64,000 bases of DNA from Patescibacteria group bacterium. GTDB taxonomy: Bacteria; Patescibacteriota; Patescibacteriia; JBDRGY01. Below, piece by piece: positions 18,861 through 60,041 of the stretch. The first letter of the stretch is position 1. Every line of letters begins with the position of its first letter. A model generated the notes under the pieces. That model saw nothing but the letters and a program-made list of their open reading frames with translations. It searched no databases and was not told the origin of the DNA. The stretch is taken from positions 59,181 through 123,180 of the forward strand of contig JBDRGY010000003.1 in the NCBI GenBank assembly GCA_043817315.1, read 5' to 3'. Both the position numbers and the translations under genes were made by a program.

Positions 18861-20203
18861 CAAAATTAGAAGAATTTACCAAAAGATTATCCAACCCGGC
18901 CACTTTGCCTGTACTGGAAAAAGCGGTCAATAAGTTCATTTTATTTGCTCAGAGAAAGGAAGCTTTTGAAGTATATCGAACAGTATCCGCATTTTTTGCT
19001 CACTCTGATTTCAGCCAGAAATACCCTAAGTTGTACGACCAATACAGGGAGCAGTTAGTTGTAGCCGAATTCGCAGCTCTTTCTTTGCTGTCGGATCAAG
19101 AAGTAATCCAGCTGTTTCGTGAAAAAGCCCGTCAGGCCTTTACTATTGACCTGTATGATGTTAGGGAAGAGCTAAAGATAAAATTGTTGTCAATCTGGGT
19201 ACCAAAAAGAGATGAGTTAAAAAGGAAAATCAAGAAGGCGTTAGTGGAAAACACCCAGAATATCAGTCAGCAGCCGATTCAGTTACACGATAAGCCGGTT
19301 AAGCCAACTATCGGTAATTGGATATTAAGCTATAACGAGGTTCTAGGCACGGAGATAGCGGAAAAAATAAAGTTGAGCAAATACTTTACGGACAATCCAA
19401 ATTTTAAGAATCTAGTTGAAGATGAAAAGAAAATAGTTAAGAATATCCTGGATTTCTACGAACAACTAAAACACAAATCTCTTTCTCTGGAGGGCTTGGA
19501 GGAGGATGTGCCGGTTGATGACGAGGGCCGGGAAGGAGTGATTAAACAAGGAGTATTTGAAAAATTTGATGCTAAGGCCAATGCTGAAGAGTTGACCATG
19601 TATCAAGAGATAATTGACCGAGTAGTAGCTGAAGAAGAAGCAGCGAAGTCCGGAAAAAGAGAGGAGACTCCGGCCAAGACAGTTCCCAGTCCGCAACCAA
19701 AAGATAAAAAAATACAACAAGCCTATAAAGGTGATCAGACAGAAGAAAAAGCAATTGACGATTTGATGCAGCAGCTGGCCGGACAAAAAGCCACTGAAGT
19801 ATTATTTAAGTCTATTAACAGTAAAGATAAAAAAAGAGTAATCGCTGTTTTGCGCTTACTGGCCCAAGAAAGGCAATTGGAAAAGATTATCACTGTAGGC
19901 GGTCAGCTTAGTGCTATGTTTGAAGGATACATGCAGGCCAAATTCGGTCCCGAAATAGTAACTCAATTCAAACAGAATCCCAACAAACCGGTTTACGTTT
20001 ACAGTTTCTTACAGTATATCTTACAGGATAAACTGGGTTTAAGTTCTTCGGAATCAGCCAGGCAAGCTATTCATCTGGCTAATATATATTCAGCCAAGGG
20101 CAACGACCAATACCTAAAGATGGCTTATGCCGATGAGCAATCGGGTGAGTTTAATTGGGCAGAGGTAGTTAAGGGGAATAAGGGGTTGGAAGTAAAGAGG
20201 TAA
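18857..20203 (+). CDS. Hypothetical cytoplasmic protein (448 aa), translationally coupled to the VirB6-like gene
   Basis: Start ATG overlaps stop of 16050..18860 (ATGA). No TM and no recognisable motifs. Charged and helical. Confidence 0.45.
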   Translation: MTKLEEFTKRLSNPATLPVLEKAVNKFILFAQRKEAFEVYRTVSAFFAHSDFSQKYPKLYDQYREQLVVAEFAALSLLSDQEVIQLFREKARQAFTIDLYDVREELKIKLLSIWVPKRDELKRKIKKALVENTQNISQQPIQLHDKPVKPTIGNWILSYNEVLGTEIAEKIKLSKYFTDNPNFKNLVEDEKKIVKNILDFYEQLKHKSLSLEGLEEDVPVDDEGREGVIKQGVFEKFDAKANAEELTMYQEIIDRVVAEEEAAKSGKREETPAKTVPSPQPKDKKIQQAYKGDQTEEKAIDDLMQQLAGQKATEVLFKSINSKDKKRVIAVLRLLAQERQLEKIITVGGQLSAMFEGYMQAKFGPEIVTQFKQNPNKPVYVYSFLQYILQDKLGLSSSESARQAIHLANIYSAKGNDQYLKMAYADEQSGEFNWAEVVKGNKGLEVKR

Positions 20204-20265: not shown

Positions 20266-20655
20266 ATGAAAAATGAAGAGCCCGGGGACGGAAGAATTAG
20301 AGAATTTACAGATTTAGAAGTATGGCGACGGGGCCACAAGTTAGTAATAAAAATATACAGTGTAACAAAAAAATATCCCGGTGAGGAAAAGTATACGTTA
20401 GTTACACAAACAATAAGAGCGGCGGGTTCAATAACAGCAAATATAGCTGAAGGATTCAGCCGTTATTATTATAAGGACAGGGCGAGATTTTATTACAATT
20501 CGAGAGGATCAATATCTGAGTTGCAGAATCATTTAATAGTTGCCAAGGATTTAAAGTATATAACGCAGGGGGAATTTCAAGATTTATATAAAATTTCTGG
20601 CGAAATTCGTAGAATGCTGAATGGATTAATCCGTTCAACCCATAAACAGAGTTAA
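20266..20655 (+). CDS. Four-helix-bundle protein (23S rRNA intervening-sequence protein family, TIGR02436-like)
   Basis: 129 aa. LEVWRRGHKLVIKIYSVTKKYPGEEKYTLVTQTIRAAGSITANIAEGFSRYYYKDRARFYYNSRGSISELQNHLIVAKDL is the characteristic pattern of this family. Confidence 0.75.
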   Translation: MKNEEPGDGRIREFTDLEVWRRGHKLVIKIYSVTKKYPGEEKYTLVTQTIRAAGSITANIAEGFSRYYYKDRARFYYNSRGSISELQNHLIVAKDLKYITQGEFQDLYKISGEIRRMLNGLIRSTHKQS

Positions 20656-22012: not shown

Positions 22013-22041
22013 TTTACTAAATATAAAAAATGTGCTATAAT
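22013..22041 (+). promoter_or_regulatory. Sigma70-like promoter: TTTACT (22013-22018), 17-nt spacer, extended -10 TGcTATAAT (22033-22041)
   Basis: Read directly. Sits upstream of the ATG at 22057 and overlaps the ATG at 22030 proposed by the ORF track, which argues for 22057 as the true start. Confidence 0.45.
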
Positions 22042-22056
22042 AACAGAGTAAAAGCG

Positions 22057-23001
22057 ATGAAAAATATCGTTCTACCTTTAGGTAAAATTAGAAAAAAGGA
22101 TGTCAAAATCGCTGGTGGCAAAGGCGCTTCCTTGGGCGAAATGGCATCGGTCAAGATACCTGTTCCTAATGGTTTCGTGGTTCTAGCTCAAGCGGCTGAT
22201 CAATTTAGCAAAAACTCCGGATTTGATAAGCCAATAGTTGATTTATTCAAGAAAGTTAATCTCAAGTCAGTCAATTCGGTTAATCAGACCTCAAAAAAGA
22301 TACGTACCTTAATAAGCAAGGCAGAATTTCCTAAAGAGACTGAAAAAAGCATTTTGGATGAATTTGCCAAGCTAAAAACCAAGTATGTAGCGGTTCGTTC
22401 TTCGGCCACAGCAGAGGATAGCAATAAGGCTTCCTGGGCTGGGGAGTTAGAGACCTACCTCTATGTTGACAAGAAGAATCTGATAAAGACCGTGAAGAAG
22501 TGCTGGTCTTCTCTTTATACCCCCAGAGCCATATTCTACCGCTTTGAGAAGAAACTGGATAAAAAGAACATTGCTGTTGCCGTAGTGATTCAGCAAATGG
22601 TTGATTCAGAGATAGCTGGCGTGGCCTTTACGGTTCACCCCGTGACTAAGGACAAAAACCAAATGGTGATCGAAGCTGGTTGGGGTTTGGGGGAAGCAAT
22701 TGTAGGGGGGCAGGTTACTCCCGATACATACGTTATTGATAAGCAGGACGATTACCTAGTTGATATCAATGTATCGGAACAGACCAAGAAACTAATTAGG
22801 GCCAAAGAATCGGGGCTTAAAGAAGTTACGGTTAAAAAGTCTGATCAATCAAAGCAAAAATTATCGGGCCAACAAATAATTGCTCTGGCCAAGATTTGCC
22901 GCCAAATCGAGAAACACTACCAGTTGCCGCAAGATATTGAATGGGCCTATGCCAAGAATAAATTTTACATCACCCAATCGAGACCGATAACCACTTTATA
23001 A
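22057..23001 (+). CDS. Stand-alone PEP-utilising-enzyme N-terminal ATP-grasp domain protein (PPDK_N-like; truncated PEP synthase/pyruvate phosphate dikinase-like)
   Basis: ATP-grasp nucleotide-binding segment of PEP synthase/PPDK (GGKGASLGEM ... VAVRSSATAEDS ... YITQSRPIT). No phospho-His or PEP-utilising TIM-barrel domains follow. Track ORF begins at 22030, but the promoter -10 overlaps that ATG. Confidence 0.65.
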   Translation: MKNIVLPLGKIRKKDVKIAGGKGASLGEMASVKIPVPNGFVVLAQAADQFSKNSGFDKPIVDLFKKVNLKSVNSVNQTSKKIRTLISKAEFPKETEKSILDEFAKLKTKYVAVRSSATAEDSNKASWAGELETYLYVDKKNLIKTVKKCWSSLYTPRAIFYRFEKKLDKKNIAVAVVIQQMVDSEIAGVAFTVHPVTKDKNQMVIEAGWGLGEAIVGGQVTPDTYVIDKQDDYLVDINVSEQTKKLIRAKESGLKEVTVKKSDQSKQKLSGQQIIALAKICRQIEKHYQLPQDIEWAYAKNKFYITQSRPITTL

Positions 23002-23004
23002 AAT

Positions 23005-24279
23005 ATGGAGGACACTTTCAAAGTTAAAGATAAAATCCCCGTCAGAAAAGAAGACGGCACCTTTTCTATATTGGAAAGTAACGGAACTGAAGAAGTAGTT
23101 CAAAAACCAGAAATGCCCCAACCAGCTCCGCCACCACCACCTCCTCCACCTAGGCCTCAATCCCAACCTCCAGCTCCTCCCATTACAGATAGACCAGTGG
23201 AATCGCCTCCACCACCTCCGTCTAAACCCCCACAACCCAGACCGGTTCCTCCACTCCAGCCGACTATAGAAGAAAAGCCGGTTTATAAGCCACCGATTAG
23301 AGAAGACCAGAAATCAGACGTTAATGGTTCAGCTGACTTTCAATTTAGCAAAGATGACGCGGAAGAAGTGAGGGGTCATGAGGAAAAATTAAAGAGTTTC
23401 GGATCAGCCGATTTTGTCACCGACGGAGAACGGGTAACCACGGAAATTGTATCTGCCAATAACCTTACCTTTGATGATGAGATATATAGAAAGCGCCTGG
23501 TAGCTATAGTCAATTCCCGACTGAAGGATATCCGTGATTTTCTGGAAACCAAAGATATGCTGTCTCGTCCTATTAAGGTAGGGGGCATGGGCTACGAGCA
23601 AACCTTAACCCAGAAGATTTTAGATACAATCGAAGCGGAAGCTACCAAACTCCACGGTCATCCTTTGGCCAAAGTACATACCAAAAAGAAAGTGGCTCCT
23701 CCTGCTGTAAAGCCGATCCTTCCCAAGGAAATCAGACAGTCCAAACCCAAGGCTCCAGTTCCAGAATCAACCGCCCCCAAGATTGCAGATGCGCCAAAAC
23801 CTATTCAGCCAAAAGTTGTCAGCCAGCCGATACGCCGGACCGTGCCCATGAGGGCACCAACTAAACCAACTGTGATTTCTTCCATACCCCAAGTAAAGAG
23901 GCCTATAGTAGAGGGGGAAAGACCCAAGATTGAGGACATTAAAAAACTACCCAAAGTGATGAGTCCCATCGATGAGATCAGGGAGATGGACTTGGGGGAC
24001 TTCCGGCGCCTGGGAACTGATGCCAGGGGACGTGTTAATAAGCTGATCGAAAAATTAGAAATACTAGAAGAAGAATCATACGCCAAGAAAGCTCAGGGAA
24101 AAGATGCCTGGAAGAAATCAAGGATATATATGTTGTATTTAGAAATTGGTCAGCAAAGCATGGTTCAGGCCAAACCGATAGAAGAAATAGTGGCTGTAAG
24201 GGCCCAGCAGAATCTGCCTACTATCAACTTTGATGAGTTCGAAGCTATCGCTGATTTTAACAAAACATTAAGGTTCTAA
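23005..24279 (+). CDS. Proline-rich hypothetical protein (424 aa)
   Basis: PQPAPPPPPPPPRPQSQPPAPP ... PPPPPSKPPQPRPVPPLQP tract, then a K/P-rich region. No TM. First of a tightly packed co-directional gene string (3-nt gap from the upstream gene). Confidence 0.45.
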   Translation: MEDTFKVKDKIPVRKEDGTFSILESNGTEEVVQKPEMPQPAPPPPPPPPRPQSQPPAPPITDRPVESPPPPPSKPPQPRPVPPLQPTIEEKPVYKPPIREDQKSDVNGSADFQFSKDDAEEVRGHEEKLKSFGSADFVTDGERVTTEIVSANNLTFDDEIYRKRLVAIVNSRLKDIRDFLETKDMLSRPIKVGGMGYEQTLTQKILDTIEAEATKLHGHPLAKVHTKKKVAPPAVKPILPKEIRQSKPKAPVPESTAPKIADAPKPIQPKVVSQPIRRTVPMRAPTKPTVISSIPQVKRPIVEGERPKIEDIKKLPKVMSPIDEIREMDLGDFRRLGTDARGRVNKLIEKLEILEEESYAKKAQGKDAWKKSRIYMLYLEIGQQSMVQAKPIEEIVAVRAQQNLPTINFDEFEAIADFNKTLRF

Positions 24280-24281
24280 TA

Positions 24282-24755
24282 ATGCAATTTCTGGTTCCCC
24301 AATTTATAGACACGGAAGATAGAATATTCGGTCCGATTTCCACCAGGCAATTCGTGGAAATCCTGGCCGGTTTTGGCATGATGTATGTTGCCTACAAAAT
24401 GAGCACTTTTTGGCTCTTTGCTATGGAGGCAGTTTTTATTTTAGGCTTGGTAGTGGTTTTTGCCTTTGTCCGTATCAACGGGCAGGGCTTTCATTTTTTT
24501 GTCCTTAATCTAATCCAGACTTTACGTCGGCCCAAGATTAAAATTTGGTTAAAGGTAATTGCCGATAATAAAATATTTCCTTCCAAGCAGAAAGAAGTAA
24601 CAGTAGCGGCAACTGCGCCTAAACCGATGGTAACCTCCTCGCGACTGACAGAATTGTCTTTGGTAGTTGATACCGGGGGAGTGTATAAATCAGACGAAGA
24701 AAAAGCCAAGGAATTAATAAATTCTCAAAATGCCCAAAGAAAAAGAAAAAAGTAA
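24282..24755 (+). CDS. PrgI-family / VirB3-like small membrane protein (T4SS)
   Basis: 157 aa. N-terminus VPQFIDTEDRIFGPISTRQF matches the PrgI-family start (VPKDI..YEEKIfGLTlRQ). Two TM helices. Sits directly upstream of VirB4, as PrgI/VirB3 does. Confidence 0.55.
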   Translation: MQFLVPQFIDTEDRIFGPISTRQFVEILAGFGMMYVAYKMSTFWLFAMEAVFILGLVVVFAFVRINGQGFHFFVLNLIQTLRRPKIKIWLKVIADNKIFPSKQKEVTVAATAPKPMVTSSRLTELSLVVDTGGVYKSDEEKAKELINSQNAQRKRKK

Positions 24756-25437
24756 GATGAAACCATCTCAGACTAAGAAGCAAAAAGCCTCAACCCAGGC
24801 TTATCTGGACATATCCGAAATTAAAGATGATTGTGTGGTAATGAAGGACGGTACTTTGCGCATGGTATTGTTAGTTTCTTCTATTAATTTTTCGTTAAAA
24901 TCCCAAGATGAACAAAATGCTGTTATCCAAGCATACACCATGTTTCTCAATACTCTTGATTTTCCCTTGCAGATTGTCATTCAGTCCAGGAGGCTAAATA
25001 TTGAAGATTACCTGAAAAAATTACAAAAGACAGAAAGAGAACAGGTCAATGAATTGCTGAAAATGCAAACGGCTGATTATCGTAAATTCGTCGGAGAATT
25101 AGTGGAATTAGGAGATATTATGAGCAAGCGCTTCTTCGTGGTTGTACCCTATTCAGCTTTGACCAATAAACCCAAATCTTTTATGGATCGTATCAGGGAG
25201 ACTTTGTCCCCGACCTCGATTATTAAATTGAGCCAATCTAAGTTTGAAAAATTCAGAAACGAATGCCGCAAGAGGACCGAAATGATAATGGGCGGATTGG
25301 GTTCAATGGACTTGAAGGCTGTCATTTTGGACACTCAATCTTTGATTGAACTGTATTACAATAGTTATAACCCTACTGTTTCAGATTCACAAAAATTAAC
25401 AGAACCAGGAAAGGTGCAAGCCGAACCCTATGATTGA
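24730..25437 (+). CDS. VirB4 N-terminal-domain-like protein (CagE/TrbE/VirB-type region), translationally coupled to VirB4
   Basis: 235 aa. YLDISEIKDDCVVMKDGTLRMVLLVSSINFSLKSQDEQNAVIQAYTMFLNTLDFPLQIVIQSRRLN resembles the N-terminal CagE_TrbE_VirB region of VirB4 ATPases. Stop overlaps the VirB4 start (tATGATTGA). Confidence 0.4.
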   Translation: MPKEKEKSKMKPSQTKKQKASTQAYLDISEIKDDCVVMKDGTLRMVLLVSSINFSLKSQDEQNAVIQAYTMFLNTLDFPLQIVIQSRRLNIEDYLKKLQKTEREQVNELLKMQTADYRKFVGELVELGDIMSKRFFVVVPYSALTNKPKSFMDRIRETLSPTSIIKLSQSKFEKFRNECRKRTEMIMGGLGSMDLKAVILDTQSLIELYYNSYNPTVSDSQKLTEPGKVQAEPYD

Positions 25438-27436
25438 ATTAGCTAAAGAAAAAGAAGTAAAATCCCAAGAAGAAATCCTGACTAAGGAGGAAAAAACCAA
25501 GAAAGAGCAGGAAGAGCTTCTGGAGAAAAAGGAACTTTACGAAGCTACCCGTAGTTATTTGGAAGGAGTGATTTCAGTTAAGGATTTGATCGCCCCGGCT
25601 GGCATGAGGGTGCAGCCCTCCTATGTGGAGTTGGGAGACAAGTTGGTGCGAACCGTTTTTGTGGTGACCTACCCTCGTTATATTGCCGTTGGCTGGTTCG
25701 CCCCGATTATCAGCATGAACGTGCCTTTGGACATTTCCATGTATTTTTATCCAGTACCCTCTCAGATTGTTTTAAAGCAACTTAAGAAAAAGGTGGGTAC
25801 CCTGGAGGCGGATATTATTGCTGATGCCGAAAAAGGAGCCCCCCGCGACCCCATTAGAGAAACAGCCCTGAAAGACATCGAGCGACTAAGAGACGATCTG
25901 ACCCAGGGTATTGAGAAATTTTTCCAGTTTGCACTATACGTTACTGTCTACGCCGACGATATCAAAGAACTTAATGAATTATCGGAAAAGGTAGAGGGCA
26001 TGTTTGGCTCCAAGCTGGTATATTCCAAACGAGTTTTGTATCAAGCGGAGCAAGGGTTTAATTCTACATTGCCCTTGGGCAGCGATGAGCTGCTAATCAG
26101 CTTTAATATGAATTCTTCTCCTTGCGCCTCTTCTTTTCCCTTTATTTCTTCTGAATTGTCTTCAGACAACGGGGTTCTTTACGGCATTAACCGACACAAC
26201 AATAGTTTAATATTGTTTGATCGCTTTAGTCTACAAAACGCTAACAGTGTAGTCTTTGCTACCTCAGGAGCGGGTAAGAGTTATGCGGTTAAATTGGAGG
26301 CCTTGCGCAGTTTGATGATGGGCACTAGTGTCATCATTATCGATCCGGAAATGGAATATAAATATTTGTGCGAAGCGGTTGGTGGGACCTATATTAACAT
26401 TTCTTTGAATTCGGAAAGTAAGATTAATCCTTTTGATTTACCAAGACCTGTCGGAGAGGGAGTAAAACCGGCTGATATTATTCGTAGTGCGGTCATTACC
26501 CTGAAGGGAATGATGCGCCTGATGTTGGGAGACCTTACTCACCAAGAGGATTCGCTGGTTGACCGAGCTCTTTTAGAAACCTATGCCAAAAAAGATATTA
26601 CTTCTGATTCTGATCTGGCAAAAGTAGAGCCTCCTTTGATGTCGGATTTTGAAGAAGTGATGGGCGGCATGGAGGGCAGTGATAGCCTGGTTAGCAGAAT
26701 CAAGAAATATACCGAAGGAACATTTTCCGGTCTTTTTAACAGTCCTACTAATATTGAAATGGATAATCAGATGGTGGTTTTCAGTGTCCGTGATTTGGAA
26801 GATGAGTTAAGACCGATCGGCATTTCTACAATCGTTTCCTATATCTGGAACGTGGTCCGATCTGAAATGAAAAAGAGAGTCTTGGTAATCGATGAAGCCT
26901 GGTGGTTGATGCAAAACGAAGATTCAGCCAAATTCATTTTTGCTCTGGTAAAACGATGTCGTAAATATTATTTAGGAGTTACTACCATTACTCAAGACGT
27001 CAATGACTTTTTGAGATCGCCTTATGGCCAAGCCATTGTCACCAACTCAGCTATCCAAATGCTGTTGAAGCAGTCACCTGCTGGCATCGATATTCTGGTC
27101 AAAACCTTTATGCTGACTCAGGGTGAAAAGTACTTACTTCTAGAATCGGGAGTGGGAGAGGGTATTTTCTTTGCTGGAAATAGTCACGTAGCTATCAAAG
27201 TGGTCGCTTCCTATACCGAAGATCAACTAATTACTTCTGATCCCAGGCAGCTGCTGGAAATTGAGCAGGCCAAGAGAGAATTTCAGGAGGAATTAGACAG
27301 CGGCCAGCTACCACCCCAAGAAGAAGGAGAGGGGGCCGCAGATGGTCTTTATGAGCCGGAACCGATAGACCGTAAGGCAGAAGAAATCACCAAAGAAGGT
27401 GCGCTCGGTCCGGAGCCCAAACAGATCCAACAATAA
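25430..27436 (+). CDS. virB4: Type IV secretion system VirB4/TrsE/TraE-family ATPase
   Basis: 668 aa. Gram-positive-type VirB4 N-region (KLVRTVFVVTYPRYIAVGWFAPI ... NVPLDISMYFYPV ... NSTLPLG). Walker A at FATSGAGKSY. Walker B at VLVIDEAWWLM. Acidic C-terminal tail. Confidence 0.8.
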   Translation: MIELAKEKEVKSQEEILTKEEKTKKEQEELLEKKELYEATRSYLEGVISVKDLIAPAGMRVQPSYVELGDKLVRTVFVVTYPRYIAVGWFAPIISMNVPLDISMYFYPVPSQIVLKQLKKKVGTLEADIIADAEKGAPRDPIRETALKDIERLRDDLTQGIEKFFQFALYVTVYADDIKELNELSEKVEGMFGSKLVYSKRVLYQAEQGFNSTLPLGSDELLISFNMNSSPCASSFPFISSELSSDNGVLYGINRHNNSLILFDRFSLQNANSVVFATSGAGKSYAVKLEALRSLMMGTSVIIIDPEMEYKYLCEAVGGTYINISLNSESKINPFDLPRPVGEGVKPADIIRSAVITLKGMMRLMLGDLTHQEDSLVDRALLETYAKKDITSDSDLAKVEPPLMSDFEEVMGGMEGSDSLVSRIKKYTEGTFSGLFNSPTNIEMDNQMVVFSVRDLEDELRPIGISTIVSYIWNVVRSEMKKRVLVIDEAWWLMQNEDSAKFIFALVKRCRKYYLGVTTITQDVNDFLRSPYGQAIVTNSAIQMLLKQSPAGIDILVKTFMLTQGEKYLLLESGVGEGIFFAGNSHVAIKVVASYTEDQLITSDPRQLLEIEQAKREFQEELDSGQLPPQEEGEGAADGLYEPEPIDRKAEEITKEGALGPEPKQIQQ

Positions 27437-27447
27437 ATTTTAGCTAT

Positions 27448-28092
27448 ATGCCAAAACGTTCAACAAAAAATCAAGGTATGTCCCGGGTTACTATTATGTT
27501 GATAGCAGTGGCCATTCTGTTGATTGTAGTTTTGATCGTGGCTTACTTTATCTACCAGAGAAATCCCCAGAACGAGAATACCAATACAACTACAAACCTA
27601 AATACCAATCAAGCTACCACTAACTTGAACGTAAACAATAGCCTCAACACCAATACTAGCACCAATGTAAATCTAAACTTAAACACAGCGCCAACTACTA
27701 CCGATGCCAAGATAAAAGCCGAGCTACAAAGAATAGCCATCAACTTTACAGAGATTTGGGGTAGCTATTCCAACCAGAGCGATTTCGAGAACATTTTAGA
27801 CCTCAAAGTATTTATGACCGAGAAGATGGGCGATTGGGCTGATGATTATGTGAAAAACGCCAAGGAGAATCAGCCGGCAGCCGGCATCTACTATGGTGTT
27901 ACCTCTAAGGTGTTATCAGCCAAAGTGTCCAAATTTGATAAAGACAAAGGGACAGCTGAATTCCTGGTTACCACCCAACGCAAAGAATCGACAGGTACCG
28001 TAGCCAATTCCCGAATTTTCTATCAAGATAATATTATCAAGTTCGAAAAAGAGGGCGGCGTTTGGAAAGTGGCTGGTTCTTTTTGGCAATAA
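27448..28092 (+). CDS. Bitopic membrane protein with Asn/Thr-rich linker and ~140-aa C-terminal globular domain (VirB8/PrgL-like candidate)
   Basis: 214 aa. N-terminal TM (VTIMLIAVAILLIVVLIVAYFIY), NTNTTTNLNTNQATTNLNVNNSLNTNTST linker, then a mixed alpha/beta domain. Position after VirB4 and the bitopic topology fit VirB8. No sequence motif confirms it. Confidence 0.3.
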   Translation: MPKRSTKNQGMSRVTIMLIAVAILLIVVLIVAYFIYQRNPQNENTNTTTNLNTNQATTNLNVNNSLNTNTSTNVNLNLNTAPTTTDAKIKAELQRIAINFTEIWGSYSNQSDFENILDLKVFMTEKMGDWADDYVKNAKENQPAAGIYYGVTSKVLSAKVSKFDKDKGTAEFLVTTQRKESTGTVANSRIFYQDNIIKFEKEGGVWKVAGSFWQ

Positions 28093-28106
28093 TTAAAATT
28101 ACATTT

Positions 28107-28466
28107 ATGGTTGATTATTGGGAAGGCGCCGATCAAAATGATAAAAAGGAACTGGAGTTATTGGAGAAGGATATCAGAAAGAAGTTAGAAGATTTTGAAA
28201 GAATAATTCCACAAACTCAGAACTTCGAGGCTTGGCAGACAGAATATGATAAAATTGCCGAGCTGTTATTTAAAAGATTTGCTCTTAAAAATAAGATACT
28301 AAACAGCCAGGAGAATTGGTTCCGTAATGGTAAAGGTTCTATCCCTGATTGGCAATCAAAATTACCCACAGCAAGGGGTAATATTTCGAGGGAGCTTAAG
28401 GAAGATCTTGCAGTATCAGCTTTACTAATTGAGGATTTATCTAAGTCAGGAGGGAAAAATGGTTGA
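28107..28466 (+). CDS. Small hydrophilic hypothetical protein
   Basis: Likely start MVDYWEG at 28107. The track ORF start at 28062 overlaps the upstream gene. No motifs. Confidence 0.3.
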   Translation: MVDYWEGADQNDKKELELLEKDIRKKLEDFERIIPQTQNFEAWQTEYDKIAELLFKRFALKNKILNSQENWFRNGKGSIPDWQSKLPTARGNISRELKEDLAVSALLIEDLSKSGGKNG

Positions 28467-29568
28467 TGTTGCCCAAGCTGGACAAGTAGCAACACAGCTG
28501 ATAAGTCGTGTTCCTTTGAAATTGATGATGGGTCAAGCCGCTAATTTGATGGGAGCCCAAGGGGCTATGGAGACTTTTAGGGGGGTATCTAGTCAAGATA
28601 TTAAGAATTATGCCAATTATGCCAAGTCGGCCTATGTCACTAAGCGTACTGCAGCTAGAGAAAGGGCCAAGGAAAGAAGAAAAAAGATACAGAACCGTCG
28701 CAATGCGCCATTACAAACTGGCGGCGCAGCGATCGCTAGTGCCTCTCAACAAGAACGTGAGGCCGATGAAGACAGACAGTTGCAGGAGCAAGATTTGTAT
28801 GATCGTAATCCGCAGATGGCCAAAGTTGGTCCAGAGCAGCAAAGCCTGGTGCAGAGAACCTTGAACAGAAGAAAGGCCGCCAGGGCCAGAAAAAGAAGAG
28901 AAGCCACCAAGCTAAAAAGTCAGACCGGTGTCAAGTCATCATTACCAAGCCAGGGAATGATCCAGTCAAGCTTAGCGGGCCAGGGCCAAATTCCTTCCTG
29001 GGGAGATCAAGCCGGTGGCGGAGGATCACAAGCCGCTGGCACAGAAGCTGATGCAGGAGCAGCAGCACAAGATCAGGCTGAAAAAGAAGAGCCGGAAAAG
29101 GTAGAAGAAGACAAGCAGGGAGAAGCCAGGAGAAGACTCAATGCCTTTCGTCGCTTAAGTAAGGCTAAGGAATCCGGGGAAATTGGTGATCTGAAACTTA
29201 AGGATATAAAAAAGGCCAAAGAAGTAATCAAGCACCTTCAGAATATATATCGGGTGATCAACGGAACATCGGCCGTTTCTGTTGTGGGATTGATTATTAC
29301 ATTTCTGGTGATGAATGCCCAATTGATTTTGGGTAACGGGTTCAAGATAAAAATTGTGCCACCACTTCATTGGAGTGAAGTCGGTTTGATCGGATTAGTA
29401 GATGTCCTGTTGGCCGTTTTACTTCTGCTTGCCATGTTACAGATTGCCATATTTGGGATAATGATTTACAACATCCTACACCCCGAAGCCTTTATTGAAT
29501 ATATGGATATAATATTAAAATCGGGCCTTCAGGGTTTGTTTGATACCTTAAAGGCAATCTTTACCTGA
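28459..29568 (+). CDS. Membrane protein with long basic/Gln-rich N-terminal domain and C-terminal TM helices
   Basis: Start ATG overlaps the previous stop (ATGGTTGA). N-terminal ~260 aa are K/R/Q/A-rich (RERAKERRKKIQNRR ... RRKAARARKRRE). C-terminal 110 aa carry 2-3 TM helices. Confidence 0.4.
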   Translation: MVDVAQAGQVATQLISRVPLKLMMGQAANLMGAQGAMETFRGVSSQDIKNYANYAKSAYVTKRTAARERAKERRKKIQNRRNAPLQTGGAAIASASQQEREADEDRQLQEQDLYDRNPQMAKVGPEQQSLVQRTLNRRKAARARKRREATKLKSQTGVKSSLPSQGMIQSSLAGQGQIPSWGDQAGGGGSQAAGTEADAGAAAQDQAEKEEPEKVEEDKQGEARRRLNAFRRLSKAKESGEIGDLKLKDIKKAKEVIKHLQNIYRVINGTSAVSVVGLIITFLVMNAQLILGNGFKIKIVPPLHWSEVGLIGLVDVLLAVLLLLAMLQIAIFGIMIYNILHPEAFIEYMDIILKSGLQGLFDTLKAIFT

Positions 29569-29585
29569 TATCTAATTATAAGTCT

Positions 29586-31121
29586 GTGAAAAAAATTGGT
29601 TGGTTTATCGTTCTATTGATAATAATATTTGGGATTTTTGGCTTGCATCAAACAGTTGTTAAAGCCCAAGAGGCAGGTTCTGCCGAGCACGAGTCCTTAA
29701 CCCTCCAAGTTCCCCTGGGTGCCGGTAAAGATATCCTGCAATACCCCTATTTCCCCCAATACCTGGAATGGTTATTTGAATATTTCGTAGGTATCACCGC
29801 CATCTTAGCTGCTATCGGCTTGATGTGGGGTGGTTATAAATGGATTGCTGCTTCTGGCAATCCGGGCATGATTACCTCGGCCAAAGGCAGTATTATGAAC
29901 GCAGCTGTTGGTTTGGTCATTGCTTTAACTTCCTGGTTGTTACTTAACACCCTAAATCCTCGGATTACTAATCTGGAGTTTCCCCAGATAAAAAGTCCGG
30001 GGTTTCTCACCGAATCCCTTTCCTGTTCTGGCAAAGACTTTCCCTTGACCGGTGACGACGGTACTTGTTTACCGCCTGATCAGATCCCGCCCTTGGCACT
30101 CTGCCGAGTTGCTGGCCAAGATCCGGTTTATGGAGATGTTGCCTACGTTGCCGAACCTTGGGGTACTAATTGTGGAGAATCGGCTAGCGGTAATGCTTGC
30201 CAGCCGGCAGGTGTGGCTGACGATGACGAGAATTTCAATCAGATGGGTACAGCCTGCGCTGACGGTAGTAAACAAGCTTGTTTCATTATTAACAAAGACT
30301 ATAGTCAATCGGCTTATTTCCGGTGTATGGATTCATTATCTCTACCTGAAGCTAATGCCAAGGGATTCAATGATTCTGCTTGGACTGGGGGTGATGGGCC
30401 TGAATTGTGTATATCCGATTTTCGTTTAAAATGCGGTAAGATATATTGGGAAGAGGGGAATAGTAGTGGGGACGGTTTTTTCGGAACCTTTAGTTATAGG
30501 CGACGCCTAAAAGATCGTTCTGCCTGTGTGATTGATCTTAATAGTTATACCATATACCGGTCAAAATCAGACTGTCTGGGAAATTGGTTTGGTTGCGGTG
30601 CTTATGCTTTTTGTGAGATTGGTTGTTTCGATAATGCTTGGGTAGTAGACCACCGTGGTACAGTCACTCAAGCGGGTTGTCCTACGGGTGTCGGTCATGC
30701 GGGAAATCTCTGCGACGACCTTAGTCAGTTAGCTGATACTTATAATGTCCCCCATCCTTCCCAAAATGCGCCGGTCCTGGACCAACTAATCAGTTGTGTT
30801 ACCAGCAATGTGGCCCCTGGGATGATAGATATGTCCAAATTATTCACAGTTGATCGGGATCACCCTACCTGTAATTACACCCGAGGACATGCTCTTTGTG
30901 AACCGTGTTCCCACACTACCAATTCTTGTCATTATGGTGGCAGCAGCGGAAACGAAGGTGCCTTGGCCGTAGATTTCAATGCTGCCGCAGGTACCACAGA
31001 AGAAGATTTATTCGATGCAATCGAAGGTTTGGTGGTAGCCCCTGGCGCCTGTGCTGGCTTTGCCGGAGAATACTATTTTGAGGACGACCACACTCATGTA
31101 GCAGCTGGTGGCTGTGGTTAA
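29586..31121 (+). CDS. VirB2/TrbC-like pilin hairpin module fused to a Cys-rich ectodomain and a C-terminal possible zinc-hydrolase-like region (paralog 1, 511 aa)
   Basis: Signal peptide (MKKIGWFIVLLIIIFGIFGLHQTVVKAQEA). Then two hydrophobic helices joined by a short loop (FVGITAILAAIGLMWGGYKWIAASGNPGMITSAKGSIMNAAVGLVIALTSWLLL), the T-pilin architecture. About 30 Cys follow. The C-terminal ~140 aa (absent from the paralog) carry H-x-x-G ... ALAVD ... HTH residues. Confidence 0.45.
   Translation: MKKIGWFIVLLIIIFGIFGLHQTVVKAQEAGSAEHESLTLQVPLGAGKDILQYPYFPQYLEWLFEYFVGITAILAAIGLMWGGYKWIAASGNPGMITSAKGSIMNAAVGLVIALTSWLLLNTLNPRITNLEFPQIKSPGFLTESLSCSGKDFPLTGDDGTCLPPDQIPPLALCRVAGQDPVYGDVAYVAEPWGTNCGESASGNACQPAGVADDDENFNQMGTACADGSKQACFIINKDYSQSAYFRCMDSLSLPEANAKGFNDSAWTGGDGPELCISDFRLKCGKIYWEEGNSSGDGFFGTFSYRRRLKDRSACVIDLNSYTIYRSKSDCLGNWFGCGAYAFCEIGCFDNAWVVDHRGTVTQAGCPTGVGHAGNLCDDLSQLADTYNVPHPSQNAPVLDQLISCVTSNVAPGMIDMSKLFTVDRDHPTCNYTRGHALCEPCSHTTNSCHYGGSSGNEGALAVDFNAAAGTTEEDLFDAIEGLVVAPGACAGFAGEYYFEDDHTHVAAGGCG
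29690..29995 (+). repeat. Copy 1 of ~300-bp near-identical (>90%) tandem duplication (pilin-module coding region)
   Basis: Same nucleotide stretch recurs at 31245..31550. Identical 66-aa antisense ORFs at 29834..30034 and 31391..31591 confirm the recent duplication. Confidence 0.8.
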
Positions 31122-31130
31122 TAAAATAAT

Positions 31131-32246
31131 ATGAAAGTAAAAAAAGATAAAATTTGGTTAGCGGTTATCTTCATAAGTATATTATGGGGAGTTTTGGTTG
31201 TCGGCCCTATAGTGGCAGAGGCTGAGGTGGCCACCCCCGCTGAGCATGACCCCTTGACCCTGCAAATTCCCCTAGGCGCCGGTAAAGAGGTTCTGCAATA
31301 TCCCTATTTCCCCCAATACCTGGAATGGTTATTTGAATATTTTGTCGGTATCACCGCTATCTTGGCTGCTATCGGTCTGATGTGGGGTGGTTATAAATGG
31401 ATTGCCGCTTCCGGTAATCCGGGCATGATTACCTCAGCCAAAGGTAGTATTATGAACGCAGCTGTTGGCCTGGTCATTGCTTTAACCTCCTGGTTGTTGC
31501 TAAACACTCTAAACCCCCGGATAACCAGCTTAGAGTTTCCCCAGATAATAAGTCCAGGGGTATTAAGCGATGCACTTTCTTGCGCTGGCAAAGATTATCC
31601 CTTGACCGGAGCAGATGGAAAATGCTTGCCTGCTAATCAAATTCCGCCACTAAAATTGTGTAGAGTGGAAGGAGAAGATCCTGTTTATGGGGCATTGAAA
31701 TATACTAAAAAGCCATGGGAAACAGTTTGTGGCACAACAAATAAAGGTGACGCCTGTTTACCCCTAATAAAAGATGGTAAGGCAACAGGTAACCAGTTCG
31801 GAACGGCTTGTGCTGATGGAAGCAAGAATGTTTGTTTTATACAGGGCATGGACTCCTCGCAAAACGGCTACTTTTCATGTGTTGATACTGTTCAGCTAAA
31901 TGAAGCCCTGGCCAATGGTTTCTCCGAATCGTCCTTTACGGGAGGAGATGGGGCAGAAGGCTTTAATCTTGCCGAGCCCAAGATGTATTGTGGTAGTCTT
32001 TGGTGGGAAAAGGGAGTTACCGACGGAGACGGGTTTTTTGGTACAGCTGCTTATTCTGCAATGTGGGGAAGGGACAGATCTGCCTGTGTAATAAATATGG
32101 CGGCCGGTGTCCAGTGGAAAATTAATTATGCTGATTGTAACTTAAACCTAATAAAACACTGGTGTATGATAGGATGTTGGAATGAAGCTTGGATTATTGA
32201 TGAATATGGCCAAAAACAAAATCGAGGCTGTAGTTATTGGTATTGA
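31131..32246 (+). CDS. VirB2/TrbC-like pilin hairpin module fused to Cys-rich ectodomain (paralog 2, 371 aa)
   Basis: N-terminal ~140 aa nearly identical to 29586..31121. Cys-rich tail is divergent but alignable (GTACADGSK..CFI, GGDG, GDGFFGT, DRSACVI). Confidence 0.45.
   Translation: MKVKKDKIWLAVIFISILWGVLVVGPIVAEAEVATPAEHDPLTLQIPLGAGKEVLQYPYFPQYLEWLFEYFVGITAILAAIGLMWGGYKWIAASGNPGMITSAKGSIMNAAVGLVIALTSWLLLNTLNPRITSLEFPQIISPGVLSDALSCAGKDYPLTGADGKCLPANQIPPLKLCRVEGEDPVYGALKYTKKPWETVCGTTNKGDACLPLIKDGKATGNQFGTACADGSKNVCFIQGMDSSQNGYFSCVDTVQLNEALANGFSESSFTGGDGAEGFNLAEPKMYCGSLWWEKGVTDGDGFFGTAAYSAMWGRDRSACVINMAAGVQWKINYADCNLNLIKHWCMIGCWNEAWIIDEYGQKQNRGCSYWY
31245..31550 (+). repeat. Copy 2 of ~300-bp near-identical tandem duplication
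   Basis: See 29690..29995. Confidence 0.8.
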
Positions 32247-32268
32247 TAATAATTAATATATTATATAT

Positions 32269-33537
32269 ATGACACCAAAAGTAAAAAAAATATTAATCAT
32301 CGTTGCTTACATTGTCACGGCGATTTTTATGGCTTTTGTTATTTACTGGACTTTCTTTGGTGACCGGGATGGAGGCGGAGAAGTTGTTAATGTTAACGGC
32401 CGCTTGGTCAATCTGGGACCCGATGGTACTCTGCCCAATATCAACACCATTGATGTCAGCAACCTGAATTATAGTGTCAATACCAATCAAGTTGTTTCAG
32501 CCAACACTAACGCCGCCTTGCCTGATATTGCCGATGTAGCCACAGGTAGTCTGACCAAAACCACTAAACTCAATGATGATATTGCCTATTACTCTACTAC
32601 TTCTATTGATGGTTCCAATATGTATTACTACGATCGGGAAGACGGACTGTTTTATGTGGTATCAGCCGAAGACGGTTCACTTAGTCTCTTAACTGCCCAG
32701 AAATTTCATTCGGTTGAGAATGTTACCTGGTCGCCCACCAAAGACAAGGCCATCATCGAATTTCCTGATGGTACCAAGATCATGTATGATTTTAGGAATA
32801 ATAAGCAGTACACTTTACCGGAACAATATGAAGAAGTTGATTTCGCCGAAACCGGTCGGGAGATTGTCTTTAAATATATGGGTGAAGATGAAGATGATCG
32901 TTTTCTAGCCATTGCCAACCCAGATGGAACAGGAATGCAGGTTGTAGAGCAACTATCAGATAGAGCTGATAGTTTTGAAGCCGATTATTCGCCATCCGGA
33001 CAAGTAGTCGGTTTTTACAAGGAATCAACAACAGGAGAGAGCCAGGAAGTATATTTTATCGGAAAATACGGAGAAAACTTCAAGTCATTATCGGTCAACG
33101 GTAAAGGTTTTGAGTCTCAATGGTCGTCCGATGGTGAGCAGCTAGTCTATTCAGTCTACAATTCGGGAACCAATTACAATCCTACTTTGTGGCTAGCTGG
33201 AGCTCAAGGGGAAAGTATTGGGGAAAATAAAATAAACACCGGTTTACAGACCTGGGCAGATAAATGTGCCATTTCGGGCAGTACAGCTATTTGTGGAGTG
33301 CCCACCAGCCTGGAAAGAGGCAGCGGCCCCTTTCCCGAGCTATCCTCCAGTAGCCCTGACGTTTTTTACCAAGTTGATCTAAATTCAGGTAACAGTACGC
33401 CCCTGGCTATTCCGGTCTACGGCGATGGTACCGGCCAATTTCAAGTTAAAAACATCCATATCGACGAGAGTGGACGTTACATGTATTTTACGGATGGCTT
33501 TACCGGGAAATTACACAAGATCCAGATAGAATACTAG
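32269..33537 (+). CDS. Membrane-anchored beta-propeller-like protein (TolB/PD40-like repeats)
   Basis: 422 aa. N-terminal TM (ILIIVAYIVTAIFMAFVIYWTFF). Recurring ~45-aa units with S/Y-P-D/S-G pattern (YSTTSIDGSNMYY, SPTKDKAIIEFPDGT, ANPDGTGMQ, YSPSGQVVGF, WSSDGEQLVYS). Confidence 0.4.
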   Translation: MTPKVKKILIIVAYIVTAIFMAFVIYWTFFGDRDGGGEVVNVNGRLVNLGPDGTLPNINTIDVSNLNYSVNTNQVVSANTNAALPDIADVATGSLTKTTKLNDDIAYYSTTSIDGSNMYYYDREDGLFYVVSAEDGSLSLLTAQKFHSVENVTWSPTKDKAIIEFPDGTKIMYDFRNNKQYTLPEQYEEVDFAETGREIVFKYMGEDEDDRFLAIANPDGTGMQVVEQLSDRADSFEADYSPSGQVVGFYKESTTGESQEVYFIGKYGENFKSLSVNGKGFESQWSSDGEQLVYSVYNSGTNYNPTLWLAGAQGESIGENKINTGLQTWADKCAISGSTAICGVPTSLERGSGPFPELSSSSPDVFYQVDLNSGNSTPLAIPVYGDGTGQFQVKNIHIDESGRYMYFTDGFTGKLHKIQIEY

Positions 33538-33556
33538 TAGAATAAATTCTAAAAGT

Positions 33557-33590
33557 AATAAAGCTCAAGTAATTGGGCTTTATTTTTATT
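33557..33590 (+). terminator. Putative intrinsic terminator ending the long polycistron (AATAAAGC-12nt loop-GCTTTATT then TTTATT)
   Basis: 8-bp perfect but AT-rich stem followed by a T-run. 20 nt after the stop at 33537. Confidence 0.4.
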
Positions 33591-33613: not shown

Positions 33614-34963
33614 ATGAGCATCAAAACAGTTTATTCCTGCACTAAGTGTGACGCCCAATTCCCCAAATGGCAGGGCCGTTGCCCAGAATGTGGCGCCTGG
33701 GGAACTATCGGACAGCAAACGGTAACCAGGAAAAGTAAACCAATAAACCAAGGATTGCCACCAGGACGGGTGGTTAATTTGGATTCAATAGATGAAAAGA
33801 CTTTGCCCAGAGTTAAGTCCAATATTAAGGAATTTGACCGGGTGGTGGGAGGGGGAATTGTGCCTGGTTCTCTTAGTTTGATCGGTGGTGACCCGGGTAT
33901 TGGCAAGTCTACTTTGGTACTGCAGATAGCTGAAGCTTTATCCCAATCAATGCCGGGTAAAATACTGTATGTTTCTGGTGAAGAATCTGCAGAACAAGTC
34001 AAAATGCGCCTCAAAAGAATCGGCAGGCAAGGAGCAAAGCTACAGTTTCTAAGCGAAACCTCGGCGGAAACGATTGTGGCCACCCTGGCTGAATACCAAC
34101 CCAAGTTGGCTATTATCGATTCCATCCAGACCATGTTTACTGAGGATGTTAAATCAGAGGCCGGTTCCGTCAACCAAATAAAAGCCTGTACCACCAAGTT
34201 TCTGGAAATTGCCAAGCCCAATAATATTTCCCTGTTAATCATAGGGCATGTTACTAAGGGAGGAACCATGGCGGGTCCCAAGACCTTAGAACATTTAGTG
34301 GACGTAGTCTTGTATTTAGAAGGAGATAAATACCATGCCTTCAGGATTCTGCGAGCTGCCAAAAATCGTTTTGGAGCTACAGCCGAAGTGGGTATTTTTG
34401 ACATGCAGGAGAAGGGGATGGTTGAGGTAAAAAATCCTTCGGAACTATTCTTGAAAGAGAGGCAAAAAAACACTCCAGGTTCGGCAGTAGCCTCTATTGT
34501 TGAAGGAACCAGGTCGTTTTTAGTGGAAATCCAGGCCCTAGTTTCTCGTACCCATTTTGGCTATGCCAAACGGGTGGCCCTGGGAGTCAATTTTAAACGT
34601 TTAGAACTATTAGTAAATGTATTAAAGAAGAGAACCAAGCTAAGCTTGGCCAATCAGGATATTAATGTAAATGTTGCCGGCGGTATCAAAATTGCAGAAC
34701 CAGCTGCTGATCTGGCAATTTGTTTAGCTATTTATTCTGCTTTAACTAATAAAGTGATTGAACCCAAGATGGTGGCTATCGGCGAAGTTGGTTTGGCCGG
34801 TGAATTGCGAACTGTAGCCCATCTGGAGAAAAGGATTAACGAAGCCAGTAAACTGGGTTTTAATCAGATAATGATGCCGGCTGCCGCCAAAATTTCTGGA
34901 AATAAAGACCTCAATATTATTACTGTCAAAAATCTACAAGAGGCATTTCAATTTTTAGAATAG
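33614..34963 (+). CDS. radA: DNA repair protein RadA (Sms)
   Basis: N-terminal C4 zinc finger (CTKCDAQFPKWQGRCPECGAWGT). RecA-like Walker A (GGDPGIGKSTL). KNRFG motif (AAKNRFGAT). C-terminal Lon-protease-like domain. Confidence 0.9.
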   Translation: MSIKTVYSCTKCDAQFPKWQGRCPECGAWGTIGQQTVTRKSKPINQGLPPGRVVNLDSIDEKTLPRVKSNIKEFDRVVGGGIVPGSLSLIGGDPGIGKSTLVLQIAEALSQSMPGKILYVSGEESAEQVKMRLKRIGRQGAKLQFLSETSAETIVATLAEYQPKLAIIDSIQTMFTEDVKSEAGSVNQIKACTTKFLEIAKPNNISLLIIGHVTKGGTMAGPKTLEHLVDVVLYLEGDKYHAFRILRAAKNRFGATAEVGIFDMQEKGMVEVKNPSELFLKERQKNTPGSAVASIVEGTRSFLVEIQALVSRTHFGYAKRVALGVNFKRLELLVNVLKKRTKLSLANQDINVNVAGGIKIAEPAADLAICLAIYSALTNKVIEPKMVAIGEVGLAGELRTVAHLEKRINEASKLGFNQIMMPAAAKISGNKDLNIITVKNLQEAFQFLE

Positions 34964-38816: not shown

Positions 38817-39140
38817 TCAGACTTGATCCGATAACCCAGAAATTCCATCGAACCAGTCCTTGGATAGATCATACCAGTTTGGATTTTCTTTTTCTATTAA
38901 GGACAGCTTCCAATCCCTATTCCATCCTTTCAGTTGTTTTTCGCGACGGATTGCTTCACTAATATCATCTATTTCTTCAAAATAAACGAGTTTGTTAACA
39001 TGATACTGAGCCGTGAAGCTGTATTTGTCGAATTTAGTTTTGTGTTCATAAACTCGTCTAATAAGGTTGTTGGTTACGCCGATATATAGCGTTCCATTGC
39101 GCTGGCTGGCCAATATGTAGATATAATAAATACGGGACAT
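38817..39140 (-). CDS. GIY-YIG nuclease-family small protein
   Basis: 107 aa. YYIYILASQRNGTLYIGVTNNLIRRVYEHK is the GIY-YIG/UPF0213 signature. Confidence 0.75.
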   Translation of the reverse strand: MSRIYYIYILASQRNGTLYIGVTNNLIRRVYEHKTKFDKYSFTAQYHVNKLVYFEEIDDISEAIRREKQLKGWNRDWKLSLIEKENPNWYDLSKDWFDGISGLSDQV

Positions 39141-39219
39141 AAGATTTTTCTTTTATTTCCCGTCTTTTCTGGACTGTCGAATCAAGTTCGACAGTGACTG
39201 CGTGTGTTTTAATTTCTTT

Positions 39220-39294
39220 GGTACCCTCGAGTGGAATCGAACCACTATTACAGGCTCCGCAAGCCTGTGTCCTATCCGTTGAACGACGAGGGCT
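39220..39294 (-). tRNA. tRNA-Arg (anticodon GCG), CCA encoded
   Basis: Hand-folded GCCCTCGTCGTTCAACGGATAGGACACAGGCTTGCGGAGCCTGTAATAGTGGTTCGATTCCACTCGAGGGTACCA. 7-bp acceptor stem (G1-U71 wobble). D-loop with GG and A20. Anticodon stem CAGGC/GCCTG with loop TTGCGGA. T-loop TTCGATT. Confidence 0.7.
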
Positions 39295-41771: not shown

Positions 41772-41830
41772 TCTGCCACTTCGGCCCAAGGCCGACCAGC
41801 CTCGGGCTGGCGGCCATCCTTCCCCGTGTT

Positions 41831-41920: not shown

Positions 41921-41992
41921 AGGTTACAAAAAAACCTGGCTTTTTCAATGTTTGGTTTTAACATTATACCAAAAATAAGTCAATCTGACAAT

Positions 41993-53906: not shown

Positions 53907-53914
53907 GTATAGTA

Positions 53915-60019: not shown

Positions 60020-60041
60020 TTATTATTTATTTTTCAAAACT

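Follow-up and report, generated by a model that had tools for sequence, protein, structure and literature searches.

Patescibacteria are ultra-small bacteria that live on other cells. The stretch of DNA analyzed here, referred to as the window, comprises 64,000 nucleotides from a Patescibacteria group bacterium (GenBank assembly GCA_043817315.1, contig JBDRGY010000003.1, positions 59,181 to 123,180). Sequence comparisons indicate that it very probably carries a chromosomal Patescibacteria type IV secretion system (T4SS) of the class ABY1, nested in the monoderm MPF_FATA machinery. Eleven forward-strand open reading frames (ORFs; g1 to g11) are packed within 22030-33537 with spacers of -26 to +22 nt, and the GC content of this region equals that of the flanks, without a shift. 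A preliminary description of the window had read these 11 genes, bracketed by a promoter and a terminator, as a relaxase-less, monoderm-style T4SS-like operon. The packing was borne out, although the promoter is a consensus match only. Likewise, the calls of a PrgI/VirB3-like protein, a VirB4 ATPase with a coupled N-domain-like ORF, a bitopic VirB8-like candidate, a protein with a long basic domain and C-terminal transmembrane (TM) segments, two VirB2-like pilin modules, and a membrane-anchored beta-propeller all survived tests by hidden Markov model (HMM) or by structure (Table 1). As a T4SS unit the string held up only in part, because its first gene encodes a PPDK_N domain and a VirB6 homologue located upstream had been missed. 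Since the VirB6-like gene and the gene of a giant secreted protein are syntenic in relatives, the system spans ~6.5-33.6 kb and therefore extends beyond the 11-gene string.

Table 1. Features of the T4SS locus and of its DNA-processing neighbours (positions within the window)
Feature	Position	Strand	Basis or remark
Giant secreted Cys-rich protein, 3162 aa	6529-16017	+	signal peptide, 6.4% Cys, CBM_4_9 domain
VirB6/TrbL-like polytopic protein (u936), ~9 TM + ~600-aa hydrophilic C-terminal region	16050-18860	+	TM prediction, family HMM
u448, soluble, 448 aa	18857-20203	+	4-nt overlap with VirB6-like gene; conserved position
Sigma-70-like promoter candidate	22013-22041	+	TTTACT, 17 nt, extended -10 TG-TATAAT; consensus match only
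g1, stand-alone PEP synthase/PPDK N-terminal ATP-grasp domain (PPDK_N)	22057-23001	+	PPDK_N E 7e-99
g2, Pro-rich soluble, conserved C-terminal domain	23005-24279	+	directly upstream of prgI in 75/80 loci
g3, PrgI/VirB3-like small membrane protein	24282-24755	+	PF12666 27.5 bits (cutoff 27)
g4, TrsD-like, candidate detached VirB4 N-terminal domain	24730-25437	+	NCBIfam TrsD E 3.9e-7
g5, VirB4 ATPase, CD1110 (MPF_FATA) type without N-domain	25430-27436	+	NF045971 360 bits (cutoff 325)
g6, bitopic, predicted VirB8-like (NTF2-like) fold	27448-28092	+	AF2 model + Foldseek
g7, small soluble fast-evolving protein	28107-28466 (probable start; ORF 28062-28466)	+	orthologue in closest relative (L081)
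g8, membrane protein: basic low-complexity N-terminal domain (pI ~10) + three C-terminal TM	28429-29568	+	start TTG 28429 or ATG 28459
g9, pilin: signal peptide, VirB2-like module (63-123), Cys-rich region (~135-365), LAS-like domain (363-511)	29586-31121	+	PF18895 E 6e-11
g9 C-terminal LAS (Hedgehog/DD-peptidase, M15-like) domain, putative zinc peptidoglycan peptidase	30672-31118	+	predicted fold + motif
g10, pilin: VirB2-like module + Cys-rich ectodomain, without LAS domain	31131-32246	+	PF18895 E 3.7e-11
g11, membrane-anchored PD40/TolB-like beta-propeller	32269-33537	+	TolB propeller E 2.6e-4; N-terminal TM
Terminator-like 12-bp hairpin + T-run	33557-33584	+	sequence pattern
radA	33614-34963	+	TIGR00416 551 bits (cutoff 403)
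recG	36695-38752	-	TIGR00643 724 bits
ComF-family (ComFC/GntX-like), double zinc ribbon + PRTase domain	41993-42676	-	family searches

Translocon genes and their conservation

The window was compared with 80 loci from species-representative genomes whose VirB4 proteins are 70-85% identical. Genes upstream were counted over the 52 loci with at least 9 kb of upstream sequence, and genes downstream over the 48 loci with at least 9 kb of downstream sequence. Most of the 80 loci are titled as Patescibacteria or candidate phyla radiation (CPR), and some are metagenome-assembled genomes with other or generic labels. The titles of VirB4 relatives include Kerfeld-, Falkow-, Buchanan-, Veblen-, and Magasanikbacteria, all of which we take to belong to the GTDB class ABY1. 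The best 120 of thousands of VirB4 homologues were 73-100% identical, and every named source among them was Patescibacteria/CPR; in the ABY1 relatives g5 is 70-88% identical. The conserved gene order consists of the giant secreted protein, a polytopic protein with 8-9 TM helices, u448, g2, PrgI, TrsD, VirB4, and the VirB8-like protein, followed by a small protein with 2-3 TM helices, a pilin, the propeller, a DsbA-like protein, a pilin, radA, and recG. The core of this order, whose conservation the preliminary description had proposed to check, is kept across the 80 loci. PrgI and TrsD adjoin virB4 in 79 of the 80, and g2, PrgI, and TrsD together precede it in 50 of 52. The VirB8-like gene follows VirB4 in 47 of 48 loci, while the propeller is present in 38 and the pilins in 33 of these 48.

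The motor of the system is g5, a VirB4 ATPase that is placed in MPF_FATA because it matches the CD1110 equivalog above its cutoff. It also matches P-loop_TraG and AAA_10, and its Walker A motif reads ATSGAGKS. The CD1110 model is covered only at positions 145-734. The preceding gene, g4, aligns with the N-terminal 130-170 positions of three VirB4 models, with matches to VirB4_plasma positions 92-257 (E 3.7e-10) and to CD1110 positions 8-138, and its orthologue in L081, the closest relative of the window, has a PF26593 TraC-like domain. VirB4 is therefore split over the two genes, with the N-domain in g4 and the motor in g5, because the model match of g5 begins at 145 and g4 matches the N-terminal part.

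The gene preceding g4, g3, is kept in 79 of the 80 loci and matches PrgI just above the Pfam cutoff. Further evidence comes from hhalign comparisons of family profiles with single Prg/Pcf proteins of pCF10, in which g3 aligned with PrgI (24% identity, E 8e-4). This was the only noteworthy pair. Comparisons of g6 with PrgL and of the N-terminus of the VirB6-like protein with PrgH ranked first at the noise level.

The assignment of g6 comes from its predicted structure. In an AlphaFold2 (AF2) model built from 28 homologues (pLDDT 81), a TM helix leads through a disordered linker rich in Asn and Thr to a domain with three helices and four long strands. Among PDB structures, Foldseek ranked CagV, the VirB8 homologue of Helicobacter pylori, first (E 5.6e-5, target-normalised TM-score 0.65-0.68), and its list also contained TraE of pKM101, TraH of pIP501, the VirB8 domain of PrgL, and one chain of the R388 T4SS. 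By sequence, the Pfam VirB8 model was matched by 2 of 41 family members (best E 0.017), and the family profile gave no meaningful match to PDB sequences. NTF2-like folds are common, yet the modeled topology of g6, its position, and its conservation fit a VirB8 protein.

The VirB6-like gene lies upstream of virB4 in 39 of 52 loci. TrbL/VirB6 (PF04610) was matched by 7 of 34 members of its family (best E 1.1e-5); the copy in the window had no significant PF04610 match by itself, and the family profile found no meaningful match among PDB sequences. With its long hydrophilic tail, it can be counted among the "extended VirB6" proteins of a FEMS review. Six relatives without the long VirB6-like gene (L050, L044, L074, L078, L077, and L067) carry directly upstream of g2 a gene for a protein of ~425 aa with 8-10 TM helices. 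These proteins match the g8 profile weakly (E 1e-10 to 5e-5) and do not match the VirB6 N-terminal HMM. They could be short VirB6 analogues, or the match to the g8 profile could stem from transmembrane bias.

Pilins and the LAS-like domain of g9

The two pilins, g9 and g10, both have a signal peptide and a pair of TM helices, beyond which lie Cys-rich regions of 230-380 aa. PF18895 is above the Pfam cutoff in both, and g9 also matches the NCBIfam Mbov_0395 pilin-like family. The two proteins are 60% identical overall, and the pilin core of ~90 residues (g9 47-135) is 100% identical in protein and 87% identical in DNA. Recent gene conversion between the two genes was considered and rejected on these figures. 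An identical protein despite 87% DNA identity indicates instead that the pilin core is probably under purifying selection.

The C-terminal domain of g9, ~150 aa in length, recurs behind many pilin modules. Its AF2 model (13 sequences, pLDDT 81, pTM 0.79) has a predicted LAS (Hedgehog/DD-peptidase) fold. The family displays the motif S-x-H...G-A-x-A-V-D...E-x-x-H-x-H; across 114 sequences H449 never varies, and D463, H502, and H504 (g9 numbering) reach 90% conservation or more. The domain was set against LAS metallopeptidases, namely the MEROPS M15 enzymes (VanY, DD-carboxypeptidase, and phage L-Ala-D-Glu endolysins) and the Hedgehog N-domain. Compared to these enzymes it has ~six more residues between His and Asp, carries many extra conserved cysteines, and is nearly always fused behind a T4SS pilin module. 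A profile search against 1.84 billion representatives returned 401 clusters at E <=1e-3. A pilin module was recognized by a local HMM on 124 of the best 150 LAS-domain clusters, and PF18895 was present on 91 of 114. In Parcubacteria-type contigs, the pilin-LAS fusion gene stands at the head of an array of small pilins. The same arrangement as in the window occurs in a close relative (L084), and the domain was found near virB4 in none of the 80 ABY1 loci.

What might such a domain do? The cluster gave no lysozyme, CHAP, or M23 match and no other candidate wall hydrolase. The LAS-like domain of g9, as modeled, is for this reason the best candidate for the missing VirB1 function. A search of the accessible literature found no paper describing a pilin-LAS fusion, and a pilin with a cell-wall-peptidase-like domain is one new detail of the locus.

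Proposed inward transport and alternative explanations

A Pfam search of all ORFs in the window with 120 aa or more found no relaxase and no VirD4/TcpA-type coupling protein, in line with the preliminary description. Nor was an integrase found in the 64 kb, and the unannotated ORFs of the window hold no further Walker A protein. A system of this type is already on record. Quinonero-Coronel et al. 2025 surveyed 3,035 Patescibacteria genomes and reported that the Patescibacteria VirB4 clade is nested in MPF_FATA, that TrsD, PrgI/VirB3, VirB6, and arrays of VirB2-like pilins lie near virB4, and that VirB8 homologues are almost restricted to ABY1 (PMC12102498). Relaxases near virB4 amounted to 15 cases among 2,474 virB4 genes, most genomes with VirB2 homologues were without VirB1 homologues, and ABY1 loci commonly included comF, recG, and radA; import of host DNA or other macromolecules was proposed (PMC12102498). 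Reviews already list the Patescibacteria T4SS. The present locus shares with this clade VirB4 and the adjacent TrsD, PrgI/VirB3, VirB6, PF18895 pilins, a VirB8 homologue, a chromosomal location, the lack of a relaxase near virB4, and the nearby comF, recG, and radA. In other words, the locus adds no new kind of system, and the suggestion of the preliminary description that its layout had not been described does not hold. It differs in that this genome inserts ivp, prs, and PPDK_N genes between the VirB6 and g2-PrgI blocks, and in that only two pilins are present, each with a large Cys-rich ectodomain and one with the LAS-like domain in addition. The accessible portions of the published descriptions of Patescibacteria T4SSs make no mention of a pilin-peptidase fusion, a propeller, a DsbA neighbour, or a giant Cys-rich neighbour.

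Comparisons with more distant systems place the locus further. With the MPF_FATA conjugative T4SSs (Prg/Pcf of pCF10, Tra of pIP501, Trs of pGO1, and CTn2 of Clostridioides difficile) it shares a CD1110-family VirB4 and the lack of an outer-membrane core complex. The order VirB6, VirB3, (TrsD), VirB4, VirB8-like resembles PrgH-PrgI-PrgJ-PrgK-PrgL of pCF10, and pGO1 has the similar order TrsC-TrsD-TrsE. Unlike those systems, the window has no type IV coupling protein (T4CP; PcfC), relaxase (PcfG), or PrgK/TraG-type hydrolase. It does encode VirB2-like pilins, which are absent from Gram-positive systems, and the locus is chromosomal and vertically conserved rather than located on a mobile element. 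The preliminary description had likened the locus to ComB of H. pylori, which is also a T4SS without relaxase, T4CP, or VirB11; the two would also share a logic of DNA uptake followed by ComFC/RadA-type processing. However, ComB belongs to the diderm MPF_T type and has ComB7, ComB9, and ComB10, whereas VirB9 and VirB10 have no match in the window and g5 falls far below the VirB4_CagE cutoff (120 vs 643 bits). The resemblance to ComB would thus be a functional analogy only. The archaeal Ced and Ted systems share a single-membrane envelope and a VirB4/HerA-like ATPase, and theirs imports DNA between cells. As to Ced, g5 has weak partial similarity to CedB (38 bits vs a cutoff of 700), and no CedA homologues were found, none having been searched for.

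Family searches confirmed the radA, 3-methyladenine glycosylase (mpg), recG, and comF genes that had been reported downstream of the operon. At least one of radA, recG, and comF lies within 10 kb of virB4 in all 48 loci (radA in 34, recG in 40). Other housekeeping neighbours are seldom or never near virB4 (tyrS in 1, clpB in 3, and prs in 0 of the 80 loci, by best tblastn match). Furthermore, in 13 of 73 loci comF is the next gene after the VirB8-like one, in the same orientation and at a spacing of -23 to +184 nt. ComFC and RadA belong to the uptake and recombination side of transformation.

How might these parts work together? The explanation that best accounts for the whole, to which we assign a probability of about 60%, is an ABY1 T4SS that transports inward. 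The VirB4 motor would assemble a pilin-based filament or a short conduit on the epibiont surface, and the membrane translocon would consist of the VirB6-like protein, PrgI/VirB3, the split VirB4, and the VirB8-like bitopic protein. The Cys-rich pilin ectodomains, which are predicted to be extracellular, would bind the host envelope, and the LAS domain of g9 would cut the cell wall locally, replacing the missing VirB1-type hydrolase. The channel would then work inward, supplying the epibiont with macromolecules of the host, of which nucleic acid is the most plausible. Inward transport is likely because there is no relaxase or coupling protein to load export substrates. ComFC, RadA, and RecG would handle the incoming single-stranded DNA. 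That nucleic acid is what the system imports is a more tentative proposal, with the odds somewhat against it. The DNA-uptake idea of the preliminary description is plausible and coincides with the published hypothesis. In a bolder and rather doubtful version, the pilins would be carriers of extracellular enzyme or adhesin domains, and a wall-cutting conduit, through the wall of the host or the epibiont's own, would replace VirB1 and feed host DNA to ComFC, RadA, and RecG, making the system a monoderm import T4SS.

Published observations speak for this model. T4SS and pilin genes were found essential for epibiotic growth of the Saccharibacterium Southlakia epibionticum (Wang et al. 2023, PMC10633639), and tubular structures, possibly T4SS pili, were reported at a parasite-host interface (bioRxiv 10.64898/2026.06.21.733656).

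Several points weigh against inward transport and the mechanism proposed for it. Both the direction and the substrate are purely what we infer. In Southlakia epibionticum comEC is dispensable, and Wang et al. favour protein export or another role (PMC10633639). T4CP homologues were reported in most Patescibacteria genomes, far from virB4 (PMC12102498), and this genome may likewise hold one elsewhere. In the window, the terminator-like hairpin separates radA from the operon, and recG and comF are encoded in the reverse direction; this arrangement does not speak for co-regulation of these genes with the T4SS. RadA and RecG serve in general repair, and inheritance, not selection, could account for their synteny in a single class; the link of the T4SS to DNA processing is guilt by association within one class. 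As for the LAS domain, Foldseek with its model returned nothing significant, Sonic hedgehog N-domains ranking 2nd, 5th, and 6th. The Pfam M15 models do not match it, which is why we only infer its enzymatic activity; Peptidase_M15_3 was matched by 1 of 13 family members (E 0.089), and no M15 family was among the 25 most-matched families for 114 members.

The strongest alternative is that the same apparatus exports proteins or effectors, or serves mainly for host attachment and wall breaching, and that the order of radA, recG, and comF is merely inherited. This is on the unlikely side. Wang et al. 2023 take the lack of a coupling protein and a relaxase to suggest protein export or an alternative role (PMC10633639), and pilins with large adhesin-like and enzyme-like ectodomains, together with a giant secreted Cys-rich protein as a conserved neighbour, would suit such a function. 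So would the hairpin that parts the operon from radA and the location of recG and comF on the other strand. However, no candidate effector or secretion signal was identified, and effector-translocating T4SSs usually need a T4CP, with Ptl and Brucella as exceptions (PMC12102498). In addition, radA, recG, and comF stay by virB4 through several rearrangements when other neighbours do not, and a co-oriented comF abuts the VirB8-like gene in 13 loci.

The remaining alternatives are very improbable. An ordinary conjugative or integrative element, with a relaxase, a coupling protein, and an oriT just outside the window, would agree with the origin of the CD1110 VirB4 family in conjugative elements. 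It was rejected on the grounds that the locus sits among housekeeping genes (leuS, ksgA, prs, radA, recG, tyrS, and clpB) without a GC shift, that the string and its chromosomal surroundings recur in 80 species-level genomes, that the 64 kb hold no integrase, relaxase, or T4CP, and that relaxases near virB4 are as rare as cited above. Export of the cell's own DNA, as by the T4SS of the gonococcal genetic island (GGI) of Neisseria gonorrhoeae, would account for a T4SS kept beside DNA-processing genes, but DNA export by known T4SSs needs a relaxase and a coupling protein, neither of which was found in the window, the known roles of ComFC and RadA are on the uptake side, and an auxotrophic epibiont would gain little from giving DNA away.

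Few machines have been shown to be essential for the epibiotic lifestyle, and the Patescibacteria T4SS is one of them. The present analysis sharpens the ABY1 parts list with an extended VirB6, four lineage-specific partners (u448, g2, g7, and g8), and a VirB8-like fold protein, and adds to it the propeller, the giant Cys-rich neighbour, and, in relatives, the DsbA neighbour. Two modest new leads are the LAS peptidase-like domain on a pilin, which may stand in for the missing cell-wall hydrolase, and the position of comF right beside the VirB8-like gene in many relatives, which provides a handle on the DNA-import hypothesis.

Lineage-specific partners and neighbouring genes

None of the four lineage-specific partners belongs to a Pfam or NCBIfam family. 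In 29 of 52 loci a u448 homologue is located after the VirB6-like gene and before g2. The g2 family profile gave no meaningful match in the PDB. The gene g7 was not detected in the other 80 loci and was at one point considered a spurious ORF. This was dropped when L081 proved to have an orthologue in the corresponding place (30% identity, E 7e-18). Positional equivalents of g8 with 2-3 TM helices are present in most relatives, and its basic N-terminal domain is probably cytoplasmic. The layout of a basic N-terminal domain with three TM segments behind it recurs in most g8 orthologues.

In 27 related loci, the gene immediately preceding the VirB6-like gene encodes a homologue of the C-terminal half of the giant protein. 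The giant protein is a candidate surface adhesin or substrate. Just upstream of its gene, positions 5624-6514 encode a 296-aa membrane-anchored acidic protein with a thrombospondin type-3-repeat-like motif (DTDEDTLTDYEE...DSDSDGKDD) and no family match. PD40 was matched by 24 of 35 members of the g11 propeller family (best E 3.8e-8), and the family profile found no meaningful match among PDB sequences. In 27 relatives (L002, L004, L006, L007, L010, and L011 among them), the gene right after the propeller gene encodes a DsbA-like membrane-anchored CxxC protein and neighbours the Cys-rich pilins. The window has no DsbA-like gene at this position; a 562-aa DSBA-domain protein is encoded 28 kb downstream (61351-63039). 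A run of secreted or membrane-anchored proteins at 47346-63997, with two giant Kelch-repeat proteins (1594 and 2034 aa) and several Gly/Ser/Cys-rich proteins that match no family, may be a surface-protein island.

The spacer upstream of the operon is 380 bp long and holds the promoter candidate; Rfam and tRNA scans found no RNA element in it. The candidate is the best forward-strand promoter match across 15.9-35.7 kb. Promoter-like sites overall showed no excess, with 36 observed and 35.7 expected from shuffles. The longest ORF of g1 takes in the -10 hexamer, so that with a real promoter the likely start of g1 is ATG 22057. The g1 protein spans only the first third of PEP synthase models. A PPDK_N gene lies upstream of g2 in 14 of the 80 loci and also in L081, and g1 is probably a co-transcribed passenger rather than a T4SS part. 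In the window, an ivp gene, prs, and the PPDK_N gene separate the VirB6 block (16050-20203) from the g2-PrgI block. Genes for '23S rRNA-intervening sequence proteins' (PF05635, a four-helix bundle) occupy spacers of the T4SS operon in the window and in L041, L048, L056, and L067. The copy in the window (20266-20655) lies between u448 and prs. L041 has six, which lie between g2, PrgI, TrsD, VirB4, g6, and g8 and also downstream of the propeller gene. Copies from a single locus share 27-89% identity, and the pattern resembles a small insertional gene family.

Between mpg and recG lies a reverse-strand gene (35584-36270) whose 228-aa product shows a weak DksA/TraR-type C4 zinc finger, and its position is kept in L081 (12532-13128, reverse strand). 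Two tRNA-Ser genes and one tRNA-Arg gene (39219-39293) lie between recG and comF. Next to the tRNA-Arg gene, a small reverse-strand ORF (38817-39140) shows weak similarity to the N-terminus of a group I intron endonuclease (E 8.5e-4). The longest ORF of a GIY-YIG domain protein (41502-41948, reverse strand) overlaps tRNA-Ser(TGA) (41831-41920, reverse strand), and its true start therefore lies further downstream.

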